This document shows, piece after piece, positions 340-8,018 of a DNA stretch of 8,018 bases (positions within the stretch are counted from its first letter, which is position 1; each line of letters opens with the position of its first letter). Below the pieces are notes generated by a model that had not been told where the DNA came from, ran no database searches, and worked only from the letters and a program-made list of their open reading frames with translations. The position numbers and the translations under genes are program-made. Source of the stretch: a virus (Duplodnaviria > Heunggongvirae > Uroviricota > Caudoviricetes); the IMG/VR virus record IMGVR_UViG_2663763286_000023, one strand, 5' to 3'.

Positions 340-862
340 TGGTGCGATAACGAAGTGATAGTGACGTTTCTGGCAGGAGTAAAAGCGCCAGATAAATTCA
401 GGGCGTGCGCAAGGATTGGCATTAACCATAGTTACGGCCTCATGTACAGGTTTAACAACCTGCTACCCGCTGCTAAACGGGTGGCAGGACGTGACGGGGT
501 TAGCAGACTGGCGTACATGAAACCAGCAGGCCGAAGCCTCCCCATCACGCCCCACCATAATTCGGGCGTAATGCGGTTTTACGGACATAAAAATACCGCA
601 ATATCGGAAATCTGCGGTTGTCCGCATGTACATTCAGGCTGCTAAACCCGGTCGCAGAATTTGCTACGACGTAGGAACTATAAGCCTGAACAACAGGAAG
701 ATCAATAGTCTGGCGTCCAATAGTAGTTTATTTGTTCCAATAAATCAAATTTATTAGAGCAATAACAATCTAGTTGAATGTTTCCTCTCTGAGGTTGCAA
801 TGTGCACACTTAGTGTCTTATTTGTATGCACTAATAAATATATTATTTTTAATAATAAATAA

Positions 863-890
863 TTGACAACTGACAAGTGACTTCAGTCAG
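863..890 (+). promoter_or_regulatory. TTGACA hexamer followed by a cluster of TGAC repeats (TGACAAC, TGACAAG, GTGACTTC, then inverted GTCAG); candidate promoter, operator or iteron-like site
   Basis: Read directly from the sequence at the 3' edge of a very AT-rich stretch (about 700-860). No convincing -10 hexamer at canonical spacing. Confidence 0.25.
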
Positions 891-900
891 AATCATCACA

Positions 901-963
901 CGCCCGGTACGGATGGATCCCTTTTCAAATATTCCATGGACGGCACAGTCTGAGTACCGGGCG
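901..963 (+). other. Perfect 10-bp inverted repeat (CGCCCGGTAC at 901-910, GTACCGGGCG at 954-963) with a 43-bp spacer
   Basis: Seen directly. Lies in the presumed 5' leader or upstream region of the 1024-1668 gene. Confidence 0.4.
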
Positions 964-984
964 CTACCTTCAGTTGTATTGCTA

Positions 985-1012
985 AGCCGCCGCTGGTGGC
1001 TTTTCTTTTTTG
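985..1012 (+). terminator. Terminator-like hairpin and U-tract (stem AGCCGCC / GGTGGCT with one G-U pair, then TTTTCTTTTTT) just upstream of the ribosome-binding site of the 1024 gene; possible attenuator
   Basis: Stem 985-991 pairs with 995-1001, followed by a T-rich run 1002-1012, then GGGGGAG and ATG at 1024. Confidence 0.3.
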
Positions 1013-1023
1013 TAGGGGGAGCT

Positions 1024-1668
1024 ATGGATAAGAAAATATGCGTTGTTTCGATGAGCGTCGGCAAACCGGCGTCAATGACTGCTGCATGGATCAATAACGA
1101 GCTGATAATGGCTGAGCGGACCAGCTACCCTGAACGCCGCCGCGATATGGAACTCCAGCTGCTGCGCGAATTGCGAGAAAAAGAGGAGAAGGGTTTTATC
1201 GTGCTGGTGGAAGAGGAAAACAGCTTTATTACTGGTCGAGTTGGCCAGCGTGTAAGGTTGCGCGATCCCTTCATGAACGGCAGGCCGGTACTAATTGAGG
1301 CAATGCAGATTTATAAGGAGCTGGAACGCCAGAAAGCAATCAAGTTACCGCGCAAGGAATCCGGCAAATACATCCTCCACCAAAGCATCTTCGATTCCGA
1401 ACACGATAAAAAAGGCGATGAGTTTTTCAACATCAACTGGAGCGAAATAACGACAGAGCATGTTCTGACGTTGTTATGCTGCTTCGCAACAGAATACAAC
1501 AACGTGGTAAGCGCAGACTACATCAGGACAATGACAGACACCATTACTAAACAAGACAACGAATATTCACCATATGAGCCATTTGTAAATATGATAAAAG
1601 CATTTTATCGGATGGAGCTCGCTAAAGTTCCTCAAGGTAAATTAACAGGTAAGGATAACATCTTTTAA
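1024..1668 (+). CDS. Hypothetical protein, 214 aa, no family recognised
   Basis: ATG at 1024 preceded by a GGGGGAG Shine-Dalgarno-like run (1014-1020); stop TAA at 1666-1668. The six-frame ORF extends upstream to a GTG at 877, but that stretch overlaps the inverted repeat and terminator-like hairpin, so the 1024 start is preferred. Confidence 0.55.
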   Translation: MDKKICVVSMSVGKPASMTAAWINNELIMAERTSYPERRRDMELQLLRELREKEEKGFIVLVEEENSFITGRVGQRVRLRDPFMNGRPVLIEAMQIYKELERQKAIKLPRKESGKYILHQSIFDSEHDKKGDEFFNINWSEITTEHVLTLLCCFATEYNNVVSADYIRTMTDTITKQDNEYSPYEPFVNMIKAFYRMELAKVPQGKLTGKDNIF

Positions 1669-1721
1669 GCACAGTAATGAGGTGCTTAGACGTTCATATC
1701 AATATCCTAACTCTCTGCATC

Positions 1722-2411
1722 TCATAAATCTGATAGCCACTTACTATCTATGGACTCAATCTCCGTCAACGGAATTGATGGGAAAAAATATCCTTGAGCG
1801 CCCCATAGCCCTATCCCTTTTAATAACCTATAACAATCAATGTTTTCGACGCCTTCAGCGATGATATTCGGACATAACTTTTTTAAATTGCTAATAATGA
1901 CATCAAAATGAGGCTTAATCATATGCTCTTGCAAAAATGACTTATCAAGTTTTATTGCATGGTATTTATTTTTAATTAATGCTTTCATGGTGGCGTTACC
2001 ACTTCCAAAATCATCAAGCCAAACATTATCTGTCAAAGTCAGTAGAAAGGATATGACGTAATCCTCATCGCTTAAATCAGGATAGTTTTCTGATATCTCA
2101 ATCGCTATAAATTTATTGTTTATTAGTAGCTCTTGAATTTGTTTATTACCATATATATATAAACAGGTCTCATAATCTACATTGATAGAGCATAATATAT
2201 TATGGCATTCAAAAAAACACTTATATTTGATTATTGTGTTAAGTTGAGATGTTAGCAAGTTAATCTTCATCTTGCTTGTAAACATACCTAATACTCTCTG
2301 AGTAGGAAGAATAGCCCCCTCGTTGGAATAAAATCTGCTTAACACTTCCACTGCTATCAACTTGTTAGTGCTTGTGGAAATGATTGGTTCTACTATGTAG
2401 ATAACTTCCAT
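1722..2411 (-). CDS. Standalone EAL-domain protein (c-di-GMP phosphodiesterase family, YdiV/PdeH-like), 229 aa, with catalytic motifs apparently intact
   Basis: Translation contains EVLSR (EAL motif), NVD, IEISENYP, DDFGSG (DDFGTG motif), KLDKSF, AEGVEN (EGVE motif) and QGYFF. ATG at 2411-2409 with GAGGG upstream. Gene is about 30 percent G+C by eye. Confidence 0.85.
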   Translation of the reverse strand: MEVIYIVEPIISTSTNKLIAVEVLSRFYSNEGAILPTQRVLGMFTSKMKINLLTSQLNTIIKYKCFFECHNILCSINVDYETCLYIYGNKQIQELLINNKFIAIEISENYPDLSDEDYVISFLLTLTDNVWLDDFGSGNATMKALIKNKYHAIKLDKSFLQEHMIKPHFDVIISNLKKLCPNIIAEGVENIDCYRLLKGIGLWGAQGYFFPSIPLTEIESIDSKWLSDL

Positions 2412-2647
2412 GCTCCCACCCTCTATTTTTAAATTGCTTGATTTTGCTCAGATAACGAGCCCCCTATATTCACAAGAGTTACACTCTACTTTTGTAGATT
2501 AAATGTCAATTTATTTGTTTGCGATAATATTGAAAAATATCAATTAAAATAATCAACAAATGTGACATAAATCAATAATTTTATTTTTACACAACTTCTT
2601 GATTTCTGAGCCTGGTTATCTCTATTCTTATTCAAAGCCTCTTTAGA
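2412..2647. promoter_or_regulatory. AT-rich divergent intergenic region between the EAL gene and the AraC-family gene; presumed divergent promoters. A weak CRP-like half-site pair sits at 2561-2576 (TGTGA-N6-TCAAT)
   Basis: 236 bp of non-coding, very AT-rich sequence between two divergently oriented starts. Individual promoter hexamers cannot be assigned reliably in such AT-rich DNA. Confidence 0.4.
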
Positions 2648-3382
2648 ATGGTGGTGGCCATGTCAGCAGTTTGTTACTTCATACTCATAAAGAAACCTAT
2701 AAGCTTTCAATTTCTTAAGGATTTCTTGATATTAAATTATGGTGATGTGCTGTTGCTTAAGCATTCTGAGCATGAATGCTTAAAAATGTATTCAGACAAA
2801 TATATAGAATTCGAACTCAATGATAATACCGTAAGAAACTATTTATTATGTAACAACAACCATGGAAACCAATCGCTGGATAAGTGTCCACATTTGCTAA
2901 AAAAGTCTTTTGCCTATCCTGATTTATTAATCAGGATGATCGATAATATAAGCGACCAAAATCATATCCATTCTGATTTTAGGGAGGCAGTAACTTTTTC
3001 ATTACTCTCAATTTTTAATGATGTTGATAACTTTAGAGCATTTCTTACGTCTGGTATGCCCACTTTCTCAGGGAAAGTGCGCAGCATATTTCTTTCAGAT
3101 GTATCTAAACACTGGAAACTAAGAGACCTAACCGATTATCTCTACATGAGTGAAAGTTTAATAAAGAAAAAACTATTACTAGAAAACACCTCCTTCAGTA
3201 AGTTATTACTTGATACACGGATGGCTTTTGCTATTAAATTACTAAAGCAAAATCATCCAGTCAAACAAGTATCAGAAAGCTGTGGCTTTAGTAGTACATC
3301 GTACTTTGTGTGCCTGTTCAGGCAATATTATAATTGCACGCCACGTGAATATGCAAAACATCAGTTATTATCTGGAAAATAA
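2648..3382 (+). CDS. AraC/XylS-family transcriptional regulator, AppY-like (N-terminal sensing or dimerisation domain plus C-terminal double helix-turn-helix), 244 aa
   Basis: C-terminal region SESLIKKKL...TSFSKLLLDTRMAFAIKLL...SESCGFSSTSYFVCLFRQYYNCTPREY matches the AraC-family HTH signature and resembles AppY as recalled. Very AT-rich. An alternative start is the ATG at 2660, which has GGTGG just upstream. Confidence 0.85.
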   Translation: MVVAMSAVCYFILIKKPISFQFLKDFLILNYGDVLLLKHSEHECLKMYSDKYIEFELNDNTVRNYLLCNNNHGNQSLDKCPHLLKKSFAYPDLLIRMIDNISDQNHIHSDFREAVTFSLLSIFNDVDNFRAFLTSGMPTFSGKVRSIFLSDVSKHWKLRDLTDYLYMSESLIKKKLLLENTSFSKLLLDTRMAFAIKLLKQNHPVKQVSESCGFSSTSYFVCLFRQYYNCTPREYAKHQLLSGK

Positions 3383-3420
3383 GATGCATTTATCTCCCAG
3401 ATAATATTGTAATATTAAAC

Positions 3421-3669
3421 TCAGTCAGCATTTAGTAGCAGAGCATTATCTATGATGATCTGCTCCCATTCTTCGAATGCCCGATCGCGGACCCCCTGGG
3501 GAACACTGTTAGTTTTGAAATCGACGACCGTACGCCATTTCCCGTCCGGACGGTACATGCGCAGAGCTTTACTTCCCCCTTCCCTGCGCACCTCAACGTT
3601 ATGCTTGTCAGCAAACTCTTGTAATGCTCGTAGCGTCCCATGCTTTACTGTGTAGTATCGCTTTTTCAA
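3421..3669 (-). CDS. Small basic protein, 82 aa, TTG start; possible HicA/YcfA-like fold (speculative)
   Basis: TTG at 3669-3667 preceded by GGAGAG (complement of 3675-3680) with a 5-nt spacer. No in-frame ATG before residue 38. The segment GGSKALRMYRPDGKWRTVVDFKTNSVPQGVRDRAFEEW resembles the HicA pattern GSH..hPdG..tvP.H...l..Gtl as recalled, but the His positions are replaced. Confidence 0.55.
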   Translation of the reverse strand: MKKRYYTVKHGTLRALQEFADKHNVEVRREGGSKALRMYRPDGKWRTVVDFKTNSVPQGVRDRAFEEWEQIIIDNALLLNAD

Positions 3670-3857
3670 GTTTTCTCTCCAGCCTGTGCCAAGGCTTTGA
3701 CGTCGAAGTTATGTCCTATTCGGTTTTATTGTATCAGATAGTGTGGACATATTATTTCACGTCCGGCGTAGTCGGTCATAGCTTTTGCCTTCCACCTTTT
3801 CCACGCCGTATCTAATCGGCGCCCGATGAAATGTTATTGCACTAATATATTTCAATA

Positions 3858-3882
3858 TTTCGCTGACACTTGAACAGCGAAA
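3858..3882. promoter_or_regulatory. Perfect 8-bp inverted repeat TTTCGCTG-N9-CAGCGAAA, about 100 bp upstream of the portal gene start, between divergent genes; candidate operator
   Basis: Seen directly: 3858-3865 and 3875-3882 are reverse complements. A possible extended -10 (TGtTAAATT) lies at 3930-3938. Confidence 0.3.
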
Positions 3883-3971
3883 CACCACATAGATAGCTTG
3901 TTCATTGGTAATCCTTAACAAGTGACTAGTGTTAAATTCCGTTCAAACATGATGTGAATTGTTCTAATTAA

Positions 3972-6701
<2,730 letters not shown>

Positions 6702-6702
<1 letters not shown>

Positions 6703-6733
6703 CCACCAAAAATAACCCCGGCGGCTGCCGGGG
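6702..6733 (-). terminator. Rho-independent terminator for minus-strand transcripts (antirepressor gene): stem CCCCGGC / GCCGGGG with loop GGCT (6716-6733), followed on the minus strand by a U-tract
   Basis: Perfect 7-bp GC-rich stem. The plus-strand A-tract ACCACCAAAAATAA (6702-6715) reads as UUAUUUUUGGUGGU after the hairpin on the minus strand. Confidence 0.65.
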
Positions 6734-6747
6734 TATCTGAAATCACT

Positions 6748-6777: not shown

Positions 6778-7890
6778 TCACTCAGCCGCTACAGGCTTTA
6801 ATAAACCTGCATCGAGCAGTTTACGCGTCAACCACTGCTGGCCTTTACCCGTTAATTGGGGCGTCAGCCGTATCTGGTAACCATCTTCATCATCCAGCAC
6901 CACTTCTTTCACCGTGAAATACCCGGCGTTGATGTATTGCTGGAACGGCACATTTTTACGTCCACCGGACGCTATCAGGATGCCGTTCCCCCGTAACCAG
7001 GCAAACAACGCGTTTTGCTTAAGCCCAACAACCTTTGCAAAATTTCCAATCAGGATCCCCTTGGCCCCTGATACCCGGTCGGCAAAATCGACTTTAGGGG
7101 CGGCGGCCACCAGCTGCTGATTTAGCTGGTGGGCTTTCTGTTCCAGAAGTTGCTTTTGTTCAGCCAACTCGGCAGCCAGGCGCAAAGCTTCGGGAAGCGT
7201 CTGAGGGATTGCGACCGGTTGCTGTTCTTTTTGCCGGAAGTAGCTGTCTTCCAGTTTTTCAAAGAATGCCCATGCTTCATTTGTGTCCACGATCTTAGAC
7301 ATGCGTGCAGCGCCGCGCTCTGTCCAGAGTGTAAGGCTTCTGGCGTTCTTACCAACAGAGTAACTTCCGGTTACTCTGTTCTTAAATTCTCTTAATTTTA
7401 AACCAGTTAGAAGAAAGTAATGCTTACCTTCTTCAAAGCGGTCAAGGTTGCGAGACAAATTGTTGCGAATATTGGCTTCATCGACCCCATACCCTCTAGC
7501 AAGAGTTTCGGTTGTTACGACACGTACTCCCTGCCATTCCAGAACGGGAATTTCATCCGGCTGATTCTGAACAACCACCAGTTCCGATTCCTGAACTGAA
7601 GGTGCATGAATTTTTTCTGATTTAACGTTAGTTGCTTTCATTCTGTGTGCCTCCTTGCGTGCTTCGGCTGCGACGGTTGCGTAATTCAGATGACCCTGTT
7701 CGAGCAGGTATTCGCGGATATCAGACAACAGGATACGGTGAACCGCGTTCTTGTCCTTTCTCCGGTAAAGTTGTTTGGTGATCATGAAGTAGTTGGCAAT
7801 AACGCCTGGTATATCCCTGGTGCTGATACAGGCAGTGTGCTGTTCAATTGCCTCGATCATCTCTTCACGGGTGACTAATGACGTTCTCAT
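6778..7890 (-). CDS. Phage antirepressor (ORF6N/Bro-N-like N-domain plus KilAC/Ant C-terminal domain) with an 83-aa N-terminal extension; 370 aa from the upstream start, 287 aa from the internal start at 7641
   Basis: ORF6N-like segment VVTTETLARGYGVDEANIRNNLSRNLDRFEEGKHYFLL...LTLWTERGAARMSKIVDTNEAWAFF. KilAC-like segment ILIGNFAKVVGLKQNALFAWLRGNGILIASGGRKNVPFQQYINAGYFTVKEV...GYQIRLTPQLTGKGQQWL. Both in-frame ATGs have strong Shine-Dalgarno sequences: AGGAGG 5 nt before 7890, AAGGAGG 8 nt before 7641. Stop TGA at 6780-6778. Confidence 0.85.
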   Translation of the reverse strand: MRTSLVTREEMIEAIEQHTACISTRDIPGVIANYFMITKQLYRRKDKNAVHRILLSDIREYLLEQGHLNYATVAAEARKEAHRMKATNVKSEKIHAPSVQESELVVVQNQPDEIPVLEWQGVRVVTTETLARGYGVDEANIRNNLSRNLDRFEEGKHYFLLTGLKLREFKNRVTGSYSVGKNARSLTLWTERGAARMSKIVDTNEAWAFFEKLEDSYFRQKEQQPVAIPQTLPEALRLAAELAEQKQLLEQKAHQLNQQLVAAAPKVDFADRVSGAKGILIGNFAKVVGLKQNALFAWLRGNGILIASGGRKNVPFQQYINAGYFTVKEVVLDDEDGYQIRLTPQLTGKGQQWLTRKLLDAGLLKPVAAE

Positions 7891-8018
7891 AGCCCCTCCT
7901 GAGCAGAAGCGTTAACAGGGAGGCACCAGTAACTGAGAGAATTGCGCAAATCGGTAGAAAAGCGGGCAGAGAAAATACAGGGAGCATCCGGAAGCTGAGA
8001 ACGTGCCTCATCTTCTGT
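7680..8018. repeat. Direct repeat, copy 2 (identical to 1-339)
   Basis: Same comparison as copy 1. Contains the first 70 codons, ribosome-binding site and upstream region of the minus-strand antirepressor ORF. Confidence 0.95.

Follow-up and report, generated by a model that had tools for sequence, protein, structure and literature searches.

A Predicted Stand-Alone EAL Phosphodiesterase in the Restriction-Modification Slot of P1-Like Phage-Plasmids

Here we examine an EAL-domain gene of a P1-like phage-plasmid (Caudoviricetes; IMG/VR record IMGVR_UViG_2663763286_000023) and describe its fold, active-site integrity, selection, position, and partnership. The gene lies in a stretch of 8,018 nucleotides, the whole of which was analyzed and is called the window below. 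On balance, we lean toward the reading that it encodes a catalytically competent stand-alone phosphodiesterase of cyclic diguanylate (c-di-GMP), carried by the phage-plasmid as lysogenic-conversion cargo. Judged from its sequence, the protein is probably active, unlike the degenerate anti-FlhDC factor YdiV, and this is the best-supported reading. Intact catalytic motifs are already known to be common in the stand-alone EAL subclass, several members of which are documented active phosphodiesterases, and one more intact member will not surprise a c-di-GMP specialist; the case adds a new vehicle to a known class and does not overturn current understanding. The fresher result is the context, namely a common and so far uncharacterized cassette, composed of the EAL gene and a gene for an AraC-type regulator, which replaces restriction-modification in P1-like phage-plasmids.

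Results and Discussion

An Intact Active Site

The open reading frame (ORF; table 1) starts with ATG, is preceded by a Shine-Dalgarno-like GAGGGTGGGAG at 2413-2423, and encodes a single-domain product of 229 amino acids (aa), hereafter the query, whose residues 8-210 match Pfam EAL (PF00563) with E=6e-20 (72 bits, against a cut-off of 31 bits). The original prediction, made from the letters alone, had seen in this ORF a YdiV-lineage protein that keeps its catalytic motifs, and every motif that it named is present on the minus strand at 1722-2411. In query numbering the relevant segments read E22-V-L-S-R26, N77, E105-I-S-E108-N-Y-P, D133-D134-F-G-S-G, K154-L-D156-K-S-F, E186-G-V-E189, and Q206.

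To place these residues we used an alignment of 151 sequences, which contains the query, homologs, YdiV/RflP, PdeH, and PdeL of Escherichia coli K-12, residues 3-222 of STM1697, and HMMER representatives; 150 representatives came from an HMMER search that ran exhaustively over 1.84 billion proteins. At the ten catalytic positions defined in RocR, the query scores 10/10 (ERNEEDDKEQ), the same string as PdeL, against 9/10 for PdeH, 6/10 for STM1697, and 4/10 for YdiV. The metal-binding and catalytic residues of RocR (E175, N233, E265, E268, D295, K316, and E352; PMC2952852) are complete in the query (7/7: E22, N77, E105, E108, D133, K154, and E186) and invariant in its family. The retention of the catalytic motifs, as originally proposed, is therefore borne out by the alignment, which reveals no hidden loss of a metal ligand. 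Among the residues that recognize the substrate in RocR (Q161, R179, D296, and D318; PMC2952852), three of four are kept (R26, D134, and D156), since the counterpart of Q161 is E8.

We also compared the query family with 44 multidomain EALs at the 30 positions where the latter show conservation of 80% or more. Catalytic positions are conserved in this reference by construction, and only the remaining positions give an unbiased test. None of the 30 shows the loss of a metal or catalytic ligand in the family. The systematic changes are Q8 to E, P37 to T, F40 to V, G127 to T, and L197 to S, together with two conservative ones (T107 to S and L142 to M). At the position equivalent to Q8, E is found in all ten fully intact members, outside the query family, of the 52-sequence group described below; 39 of 56 other short EALs have it too, while 40 of 43 long multidomain EALs have Q. 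As far as this distribution tells, the change is no mark of decay and is usual in intact stand-alone EALs. Both departures of the query from canonical EALs, the E at the QP position and the loop 6 sequence, are also found in SfaY/PdeY.

Fold, Family, and Selection

The resemblance to YdiV, which the original prediction had pointed out, is real. When all PDB chain sequences were searched, the best matches were STM1697 (1e-27, 100 bits) and YdiV (2e-21, 80 bits), with YahA/PdeL (3.4e-10) as the best active EAL and RocR at 6.6e-7. The AlphaFold2 model of the protein is confident (predicted local distance difference test score [pLDDT] 90.6, predicted template modeling score [pTM] 0.88). Its top Foldseek matches are all EAL domains, and the closest solved folds are again YdiV (template modeling [TM] score 0.86, root mean square deviation [rmsd] 2.6 Å) and STM1697 (TM 0.81/0.87), active EALs such as YahA ranking lower (TM ~0.74, rmsd ~4 Å). 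Among NCBIfam models the best is the PdeH equivalog (1.3e-26), whose 93 bits remain far under the cut-off of 190 bits, and in PHROG the protein belongs to a family of unknown function (phrog_32988).

The branching pattern qualifies this likeness. The tree was built by neighbor joining from gamma distances and bootstrapped, a simple distance method applied to a sample that is biased toward relatives of the query. The query's own family comprises 17 representatives, down to 44% identity (bootstrap 0.95), and falls inside a 52-sequence group with a median length of 229 aa, which also holds the STM1697 and YdiV subgroups; the family is nested in neither of the two, and the deep nodes have bootstrap values of at most 0.2. 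Basal members of both degenerate subgroups are themselves intact (P0031, P0032, and P0045 score 10/10). Among the 35 members of the group outside the family, the catalytic score is 10/10 in 10, 9/10 in 4, 8/10 in 3, and at most 6/10 in 18. As placed by this tree, the "YdiV lineage" of the original prediction is right as a neighborhood and wrong as a clade. Nor are ENYP and LDKSF characteristic of YdiV, as had been supposed: both motifs, and GxGNxT as well, are subclass-wide or EAL-wide.

A stand-alone EAL subclass has been described in enterobacteria (El Mouali et al. 2017, as cited in PMC10333796 and PMC9275015). The query has the form of this subclass, with a single EAL domain, no sensor or partner domain, and 229 aa in a class of ~220-265 aa. 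Every match better than 1.3e-12 in the representative search is a single-domain protein of at most 286 aa, and these short best matches, together with the neighbor-joining grouping, make the query a member of the subclass.

Several observations speak for selection. Among the 229 columns of the family alignment 47 are invariant, and they include all ten catalytic positions (hypergeometric P ~6e-8). The ratio of nonsynonymous to synonymous substitution rates (dN/dS) of the EAL gene is 0.35 against an allele of 95.6% identity and 0.11 against an allele of 66%. Of the 137 E. coli genomes that bear the gene, 129 have a full-length ORF, as do 6/6 P1-like viral contigs. From the invariant catalytic positions, the dN/dS values, and the intact ORFs, it follows that the gene is maintained, and maintained for its active site.

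Comparison with named EAL proteins places the query more closely. STM1697 and YdiV/RflP/STM1344 are degenerate stand-alone EAL-like anti-FlhD4C2 factors that share with it a compact single domain of ~230 aa, the GxGN(A/S)T variant of loop 6, and the ENYP/LDKSF context. They are encoded at a chromosomal core locus, in contrast to the phage-plasmid gene studied here, and the site of YdiV is degenerate, with neither binding nor hydrolysis of c-di-GMP, in contrast to the complete set of the query. PdeH (YhjH) and YE2225 resemble the query in their single EAL domain, intact catalytic set, and noncanonical loop 6 (DDFGTGMANFS in PdeH), and enzymes of this type share the stand-alone subclass with YdiV and STM1697 (PMC9275015, PMC10333796). 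Both are active, and their catalytic mutants are inert (PMC6401482). PdeH differs from the query in its low identity (~24%), in having Q at the QP motif, and in lacking R26; it is also a core gene of flagellar class 3, whereas the query travels as mobile cargo beside an AraC regulator. SfaY/PdeY, which comes from the distal end of the S-fimbrial operon in extraintestinal pathogenic E. coli, has the same E at the QP position, a WLDDFGSGNA loop 6, and an accessory, horizontally acquired gene. It differs in identity (22-24%), place in the tree, absence of R26 (ELxxD), and genomic setting. SfaY/PdeY is reported to function as a phosphodiesterase on overexpression (PMC5635171, PMC6385356).

A number of points weigh against activity. 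The fold is nearest to those of YdiV and STM1697, which are compact, monomeric, and inactive, and EAL activity usually depends on dimerization. About half of the nearest relatives outside the family are degenerate (the 18 of 35 mentioned above). The glutamine that recognizes the substrate in RocR (Q161; PMC2952852) is replaced by E. Loop 6 reads DFGSGNATM and not the canonical DFG(T/A)GYSS, with DFG and the second G kept and Y replaced by N. According to a review (PMC10333796), a degenerate loop 6 may silence otherwise intact EALs, in which case the query would fall in the conditionally active class; active enzymes also depart from the canonical loop, as do PdeH (DFGTGMANF) and PdeL (DFGTGYATY). 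The same review states that E. coli plasmids encode "catalytically inactive" EAL-only proteins, among which the query might be (PMC10333796).

Public databases label the gene in conflicting ways, as "ydiV: putative anti-FlhC(2)FlhD(4) factor", "EAL domain-containing protein", "diguanylate phosphodiesterase", and "signal peptide protein". Of these names, ydiV, which occurs in one phage record (OQ595196.1, Salmonella phage SJ1), is probably wrong as to function.

An AraC-Type Partner

The EAL gene is transcribed divergently from the gene of an AraC-type regulator. The latter protein is full length and matches the NCBIfam YdeO model (2.7e-44, under the equivalog cut-off); its nearest relatives are the YdeO model and GadX, with CsvR (1e-20) and Rns (4e-20) among solved structures in the PDB. 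The dN/dS of its gene is 0.11. The divergent pair is kept in every P1-like locus with enough flanking sequence, and an EAL allele of 66% identity has the same AraC partner on an IncFII plasmid, adjoining ParE/RelB.

In the six-allele alignment of the intergenic region, the AraC-proximal half holds long conserved blocks such as TTATTGATTTATGTCACATTT, even in 66%-identity alleles whose synonymous sites are saturated. The EAL-proximal half is variable (alignment of 2412-2659), with a (CAAA)n expansion in one contig (L022). The conserved blocks are candidate binding sites of the regulator, and the (CAAA)n tract is a possible phase-variable element. Alleles of the two genes reassort: an EAL allele of 86% identity is found with an AraC allele of 99%, and EAL alleles of 95-96% with AraC alleles of 86-90%. 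For one pair of elements, the synonymous divergence (dS) of the EAL gene is 0.05 and that of the AraC gene 0.49. Thus, recombination occurs inside the cassette, with the pairing itself always kept. Together, the conserved blocks and the reassortment would be explained better by a cis-regulatory link than by a co-evolving protein complex.

Two lesions of the AraC-type gene were observed beside an intact EAL gene. One is a deletion of ~7 aa in the helix-turn-helix (HTH) region, in the GenBank record "phage P1 isolate del res del mod" (L012, 6065-6766), and in the other, seen in one IMG/VR contig (L019, 3049-3779), the reading frame is split. No C1 operator was found in the 1.9-kb cassette, including its intergenic region. 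Scans of the cassette for promoter and terminator consensus were uninformative, with promoter-like sites fewer than in shuffled controls.

The mat-lxc Interval as a Cargo Slot

Comparison of the window with P1 (NC_005856) delimits the cassette precisely. Window positions 826-1533 correspond to P1 2629-3336 (Omat and mat), 3425-3697 to P1 9754-10026 (lxc), and 3763-6734 to P1 17093-20065 (a 5' remnant of darB, prt, and pro). Between the first two, 1534-3424 stands in place of P1 3337-9753, which comprises the 3' end of mat, res, and mod. The guanine-cytosine (GC) content of the cassette is ~31%, against roughly 45-55% in the flanks, and the last ~135 nucleotides of the mat homolog diverge from P1 mat.

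The same arrangement is found elsewhere. Positions 1500-3500 of the window are 100% identical to E. coli O111 plasmids of ~91-98 kb, which have a P1 architecture (c1, cre, icd/ant, mat, portal, pro, lyz, and ssb). The "del res del mod" record introduced above has the same order of genes (mat, EAL, AraC-type, lxc, ulx, and darB). In the P1-like element of the window, most of ulx is gone and darB is reduced to 144 bp (3763-3906, within 3698-3980); the portal gene follows almost directly after lxc. With res-mod, most of ulx, and darB lost, the element lacks the restriction system of P1 and this part of its Dar anti-restriction system.

The EcoP1 res-mod of classical P1 shares with the cassette its position between mat and lxc, its location in the same minus-strand region, and its character as a self-contained module with a regulatory region of its own. 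The two have no homology, however, and differ in kind, one being a type III restriction-modification system and the other a signaling enzyme with a regulator. A third occupant is seen in a sibling O111:H11 plasmid (L048, NZ_CP077568.1, 4231-8688), where the interval holds an extra icd/ant cassette, a 157-aa HTH protein, and a DUF3944 protein. With this third type of occupant, the mat-lxc interval behaves as a cargo hotspot.

Distribution

We counted the cassette in 5,426 complete E. coli genomes, taking the EAL gene alone as query and the P1-type portal gene as denominator. The EAL gene is present in 137 genomes (134 of its 138 places are on plasmids), the portal gene in 492, and an EcoP1-type res gene in 88 (57 places on plasmids). 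Counted in this way, the cassette fills the slot in ~28% of P1-like elements, more often than EcoP1 res does. In PLSDB there are 146 cassette-bearing plasmids, 143 of them from Escherichia. The exact EAL protein is encoded on 417 contigs of the protein collection, under the sole name "EAL domain-containing protein". A literature search for an EAL protein borne by P1 or a phage-plasmid yielded nothing specific, and a preprint on an O111:H8 P1-like plasmid does not mention the EAL and AraC genes.

Distant members of the EAL family have no AraC neighbor and stand beside adhesin or virulence loci. A pap-type fimbrial (chaperone-usher) operon has alleles of 44-49% identity at its distal end, just upstream of a serine protease autotransporter (SPATE) of ~1,300 aa, with hlyC/hlyA or ccdA adjoining (L013, 1-12711; L006 and L007). 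Relatives in Pantoea adjoin fimbrial and TibC/autotransporter genes. The pap-distal position has its analog in sfaY at the sfa operon; this suggests that adhesins and EAL proteins are repeatedly linked.

Besides these, ~24 IMG/VR contigs (L024-L047; ~25-97 kb, most ~55 kb) have an EAL match at 27-31% identity (~4001-4600), mostly at contig ends. Such matches are probably host EAL genes at prophage borders and not phage cargo.

Proposed Role and Alternatives

As a phosphodiesterase carried for lysogenic conversion, the EAL protein would be expressed in the lysogen from the shared AT-rich intergenic region, under the adjacent AraC-type regulator, and would hydrolyze c-di-GMP to the linear dinucleotide pGpG. 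A lower host pool of c-di-GMP would then relieve the YcgR brake on flagellar rotation in E. coli and lead to less CsgD-dependent curli and cellulose. Related stand-alone EALs linked to adhesin operons, such as SfaY/PdeY, are thought to couple adhesion and motility likewise.

In an alternative scenario, which we consider unlikely, the protein would bind FlhD (or Fur or another transcription factor) independently of catalysis, as YdiV and STM1697 do, and so repress flagellar genes in the lysogen. In its favor, the nearest solved relatives by both sequence and fold are the two anti-FlhDC factors, and one automated annotation is ydiV; moreover, the helix length in the FlhD-binding region equals that of STM1697, with no gap, and F159, K166, and the hydrophobic V171/I172 stand at STM1697 F160, K167, L172, and L173. 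A pure binder would, however, have no need of a catalytic site that is intact and invariant. The residues of YdiV that touch FlhD, in helices alpha6-alpha8, are F155, F168, H175, E179, F181, R183, A184, and Q188 (PMC3510510), to which correspond, in order, I146, F159, K166, D170, a gap, a gap, V171, and N175 of the query. F155 and A184 are thus changed, F181 and R183 belong to a 4-residue segment that the query lacks, and the sole contact kept is the F of the DKSF motif, F159, which is EAL-wide and therefore uninformative on FlhD binding. For the STM1697 contacts V115, L116, L136, V147, F160, K167, L172, L173, K175, H176, and Y180 (PMC5622320), the equivalents are, in order, a gap, a gap, F135, I146, F159, K166, V171, I172, S174, N175, and L179. 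Two of these are identical and three conservative, at positions that vary within the query family; K175, H176, and Y180 have given way to S, N, and L, and V115/L116 face a gap. The equivalent of the FlhD-binding helix (160-180, 21 residues) is the least conserved window of the query family (1st percentile), though FlhD is a conserved target, whereas the same segment lies at the 90th percentile of conservation in the STM1697 subgroup. Since the contact residues are mostly changed and the helix is the least conserved, FlhD binding by the query is unsupported, and the comparison argues against a sequestering of FlhD like that by YdiV or STM1697.

The strict retention of the divergent pair on two replicon types, with purifying selection on both genes, brings to mind a trigger enzyme or c-di-GMP sensor that would bind and hydrolyze c-di-GMP and, according to its occupancy, modulate the adjacent AraC-type regulator (or another transcription factor) through direct contact, as a split analog of PdeL or PdeR. 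Precedents for EALs that control transcription factors are BluF-BluR (PMC3509220) and PdeL, which has its own HTH. We nevertheless regard this role as improbable, given that simple cis-regulation accounts equally well for the pairing, that EAL and AraC alleles reassort freely, unlike tightly co-evolving interfaces, that the regulator gene is damaged beside an intact EAL gene in two loci (L012 and L019), and that distant family members have no such neighbor. A role in phage conflict, either by hydrolysis of cyclic-dinucleotide immune signals such as 3'3'-cGAMP (cyclic GMP-AMP) against cyclic-oligonucleotide-based antiphage signaling systems (CBASS) or by removal of c-di-GMP-dependent phage receptors (superinfection exclusion without nucleases), seems to us very unlikely. 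The cassette would then serve conflict and not lifestyle, having been selected into the slot because a regulated cyclic-dinucleotide phosphodiesterase benefits the phage-plasmid. This role would agree with a slot whose classical occupant is a defense system, with dar anti-restriction genes adjoining in P1. The stand-alone VcEAL (PDB 6ifq) is described as degrading both c-di-GMP and cGAMP (Yadav et al. 2019, cited in PMC7288161), and infection by phage N4 requires a c-di-GMP-controlled exopolysaccharide (PMC8669469). VcEAL is, however, only distantly related to the query (E=4e-6), and the EAL, AraC, Mat, and Lxc proteins matched none of the PADLOC defense and anti-defense models. We know of no anti-CBASS protein that is an EAL enzyme. 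The gene also has a regulator as partner and is AT-rich, like lysogenic-conversion morons; its relatives are found on plasmids and chromosomes, not in phages, with fimbrial and autotransporter loci as neighbors, and the other slot occupant is not an obvious defense system. The absence of a defense or anti-defense match, the AT-rich regulator-paired cassette, and the adhesin loci beside its relatives all tell against the action on immune cyclic dinucleotides on which the original prediction had speculated. If 3'3'-cGAMP were indeed destroyed during P1 infection, the protein would be the first EAL-type anti-CBASS enzyme. We give hardly any credence to a decaying passenger gene without current function. 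The low GC content suggests a recent foreign origin and a probable silencing by H-NS, and the sequence neighborhood is rich in degenerate EALs, but the dN/dS values (0.11-0.35), the nearly universal integrity of the ORF in E. coli genomes and viral contigs, and the invariance of the catalytic residues to 44% identity point the other way.

If the enzyme is active, as we favor, ~2.5% of complete E. coli genomes, and more than a quarter of the carriers of P1-like elements, would have an extra mobile c-di-GMP phosphodiesterase with its own regulator. It could shift the biofilm formation and motility of lysogens, including O111 Shiga toxin-producing E. coli as well as many multidrug-resistant isolates from livestock and the clinic. 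Current inventories of the E. coli c-di-GMP network do not list the protein. As a close relative with the same compact fold and an intact active site, it also offers a natural comparison for the evolution of YdiV and STM1697 from active enzymes. The res-mod slot of P1 is a cargo hotspot, and the commoner of the two E. coli occupants compared is a signaling cassette and not a restriction system.

Other Features of the Window

The flanks of the slot are collected with the cassette in table 1.

Table 1. Features of the window and of the EAL protein that it encodes
Feature	Position	Strand	Basis
Stand-alone EAL-domain protein, 229 aa, predicted c-di-GMP phosphodiesterase	1722..2411	-	ORF, Pfam EAL, catalytic residues, AlphaFold2, dN/dS
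Catalytic residues of the EAL protein: E22, R26, N77, E105, E108, D133, D134, K154, E186, (E189), Q206			
Loop 6 of the EAL protein: D134-FGSGNATM			
AraC-family transcription regulator, 244 aa (RefSeq start ~2660)	2648..3382	+	Pfam HTH_18/HTH_AraC, YdeO model, phrog_1450
AT-rich divergent intergenic region, common to the EAL and AraC-type genes	2412..2647	.	Sequence, six-allele alignment
Cargo cassette, ~1.9 kb, ~31% GC, no canonical P1 counterpart	1534..3424	.	blastn of window against NC_005856, composition
Perfect C1-repressor operator equal to P1 Omat, upstream of mat, outside the cassette	747..763	-	Exact ATTGCTCTAATAAATTT match
mat (maturation control) homolog, left flank of the slot	877..1668	+	96.5% identity to P1 2629-3336; phrog_1837; annotated Mat in L012
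Long hairpin, 17-bp stem, between the convergent AraC-type and lxc genes	3366..3406	-	Terminator-like scan, consensus match only
lxc (bof), C1 co-repressor, 82 aa, right flank of the slot	3421..3669	-	96% identity to P1 9754-10026; phrog_2160; annotated Lxc in L012 and NC_005856

An exact match to the operator ATTGCTCTAATAAATTT would be expected 0.06 times by chance. A second C1-operator-like site, ATTGCACTAATATATTT, with two mismatches, lies at 3836-3852 on the plus strand, between lxc and the portal gene and inside the darB remnant; at the equivalent place no operator is annotated in the part of P1 examined. The hairpin at the right boundary of the cassette may be a terminator, possibly bidirectional, or a recombination scar.

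The ends of the window, 1-339 and 7680-8018, are identical over 339 bp. This identity arises because a 7.7-kb segment (mat, EAL, AraC, lxc, prt, and pro) is flanked on both sides by an icd/KilAC-antirepressor cassette, the two copies being in direct orientation. We considered the window as a small circular element and rejected this, since the plasmid has three icd/ant cassettes and the window starts and ends in two of them. At the level of the plasmid, the repeat spans ~1.7 kb with 92% identity (L001, 6564-8266 and 14240-15945), and a third, inverted copy lies near c1. Through the icd/ant repeats, the segment could be deleted, duplicated, or inverted. The sibling plasmid NZ_CP077568.1 also has ompC and TnpB genes downstream of ssb.

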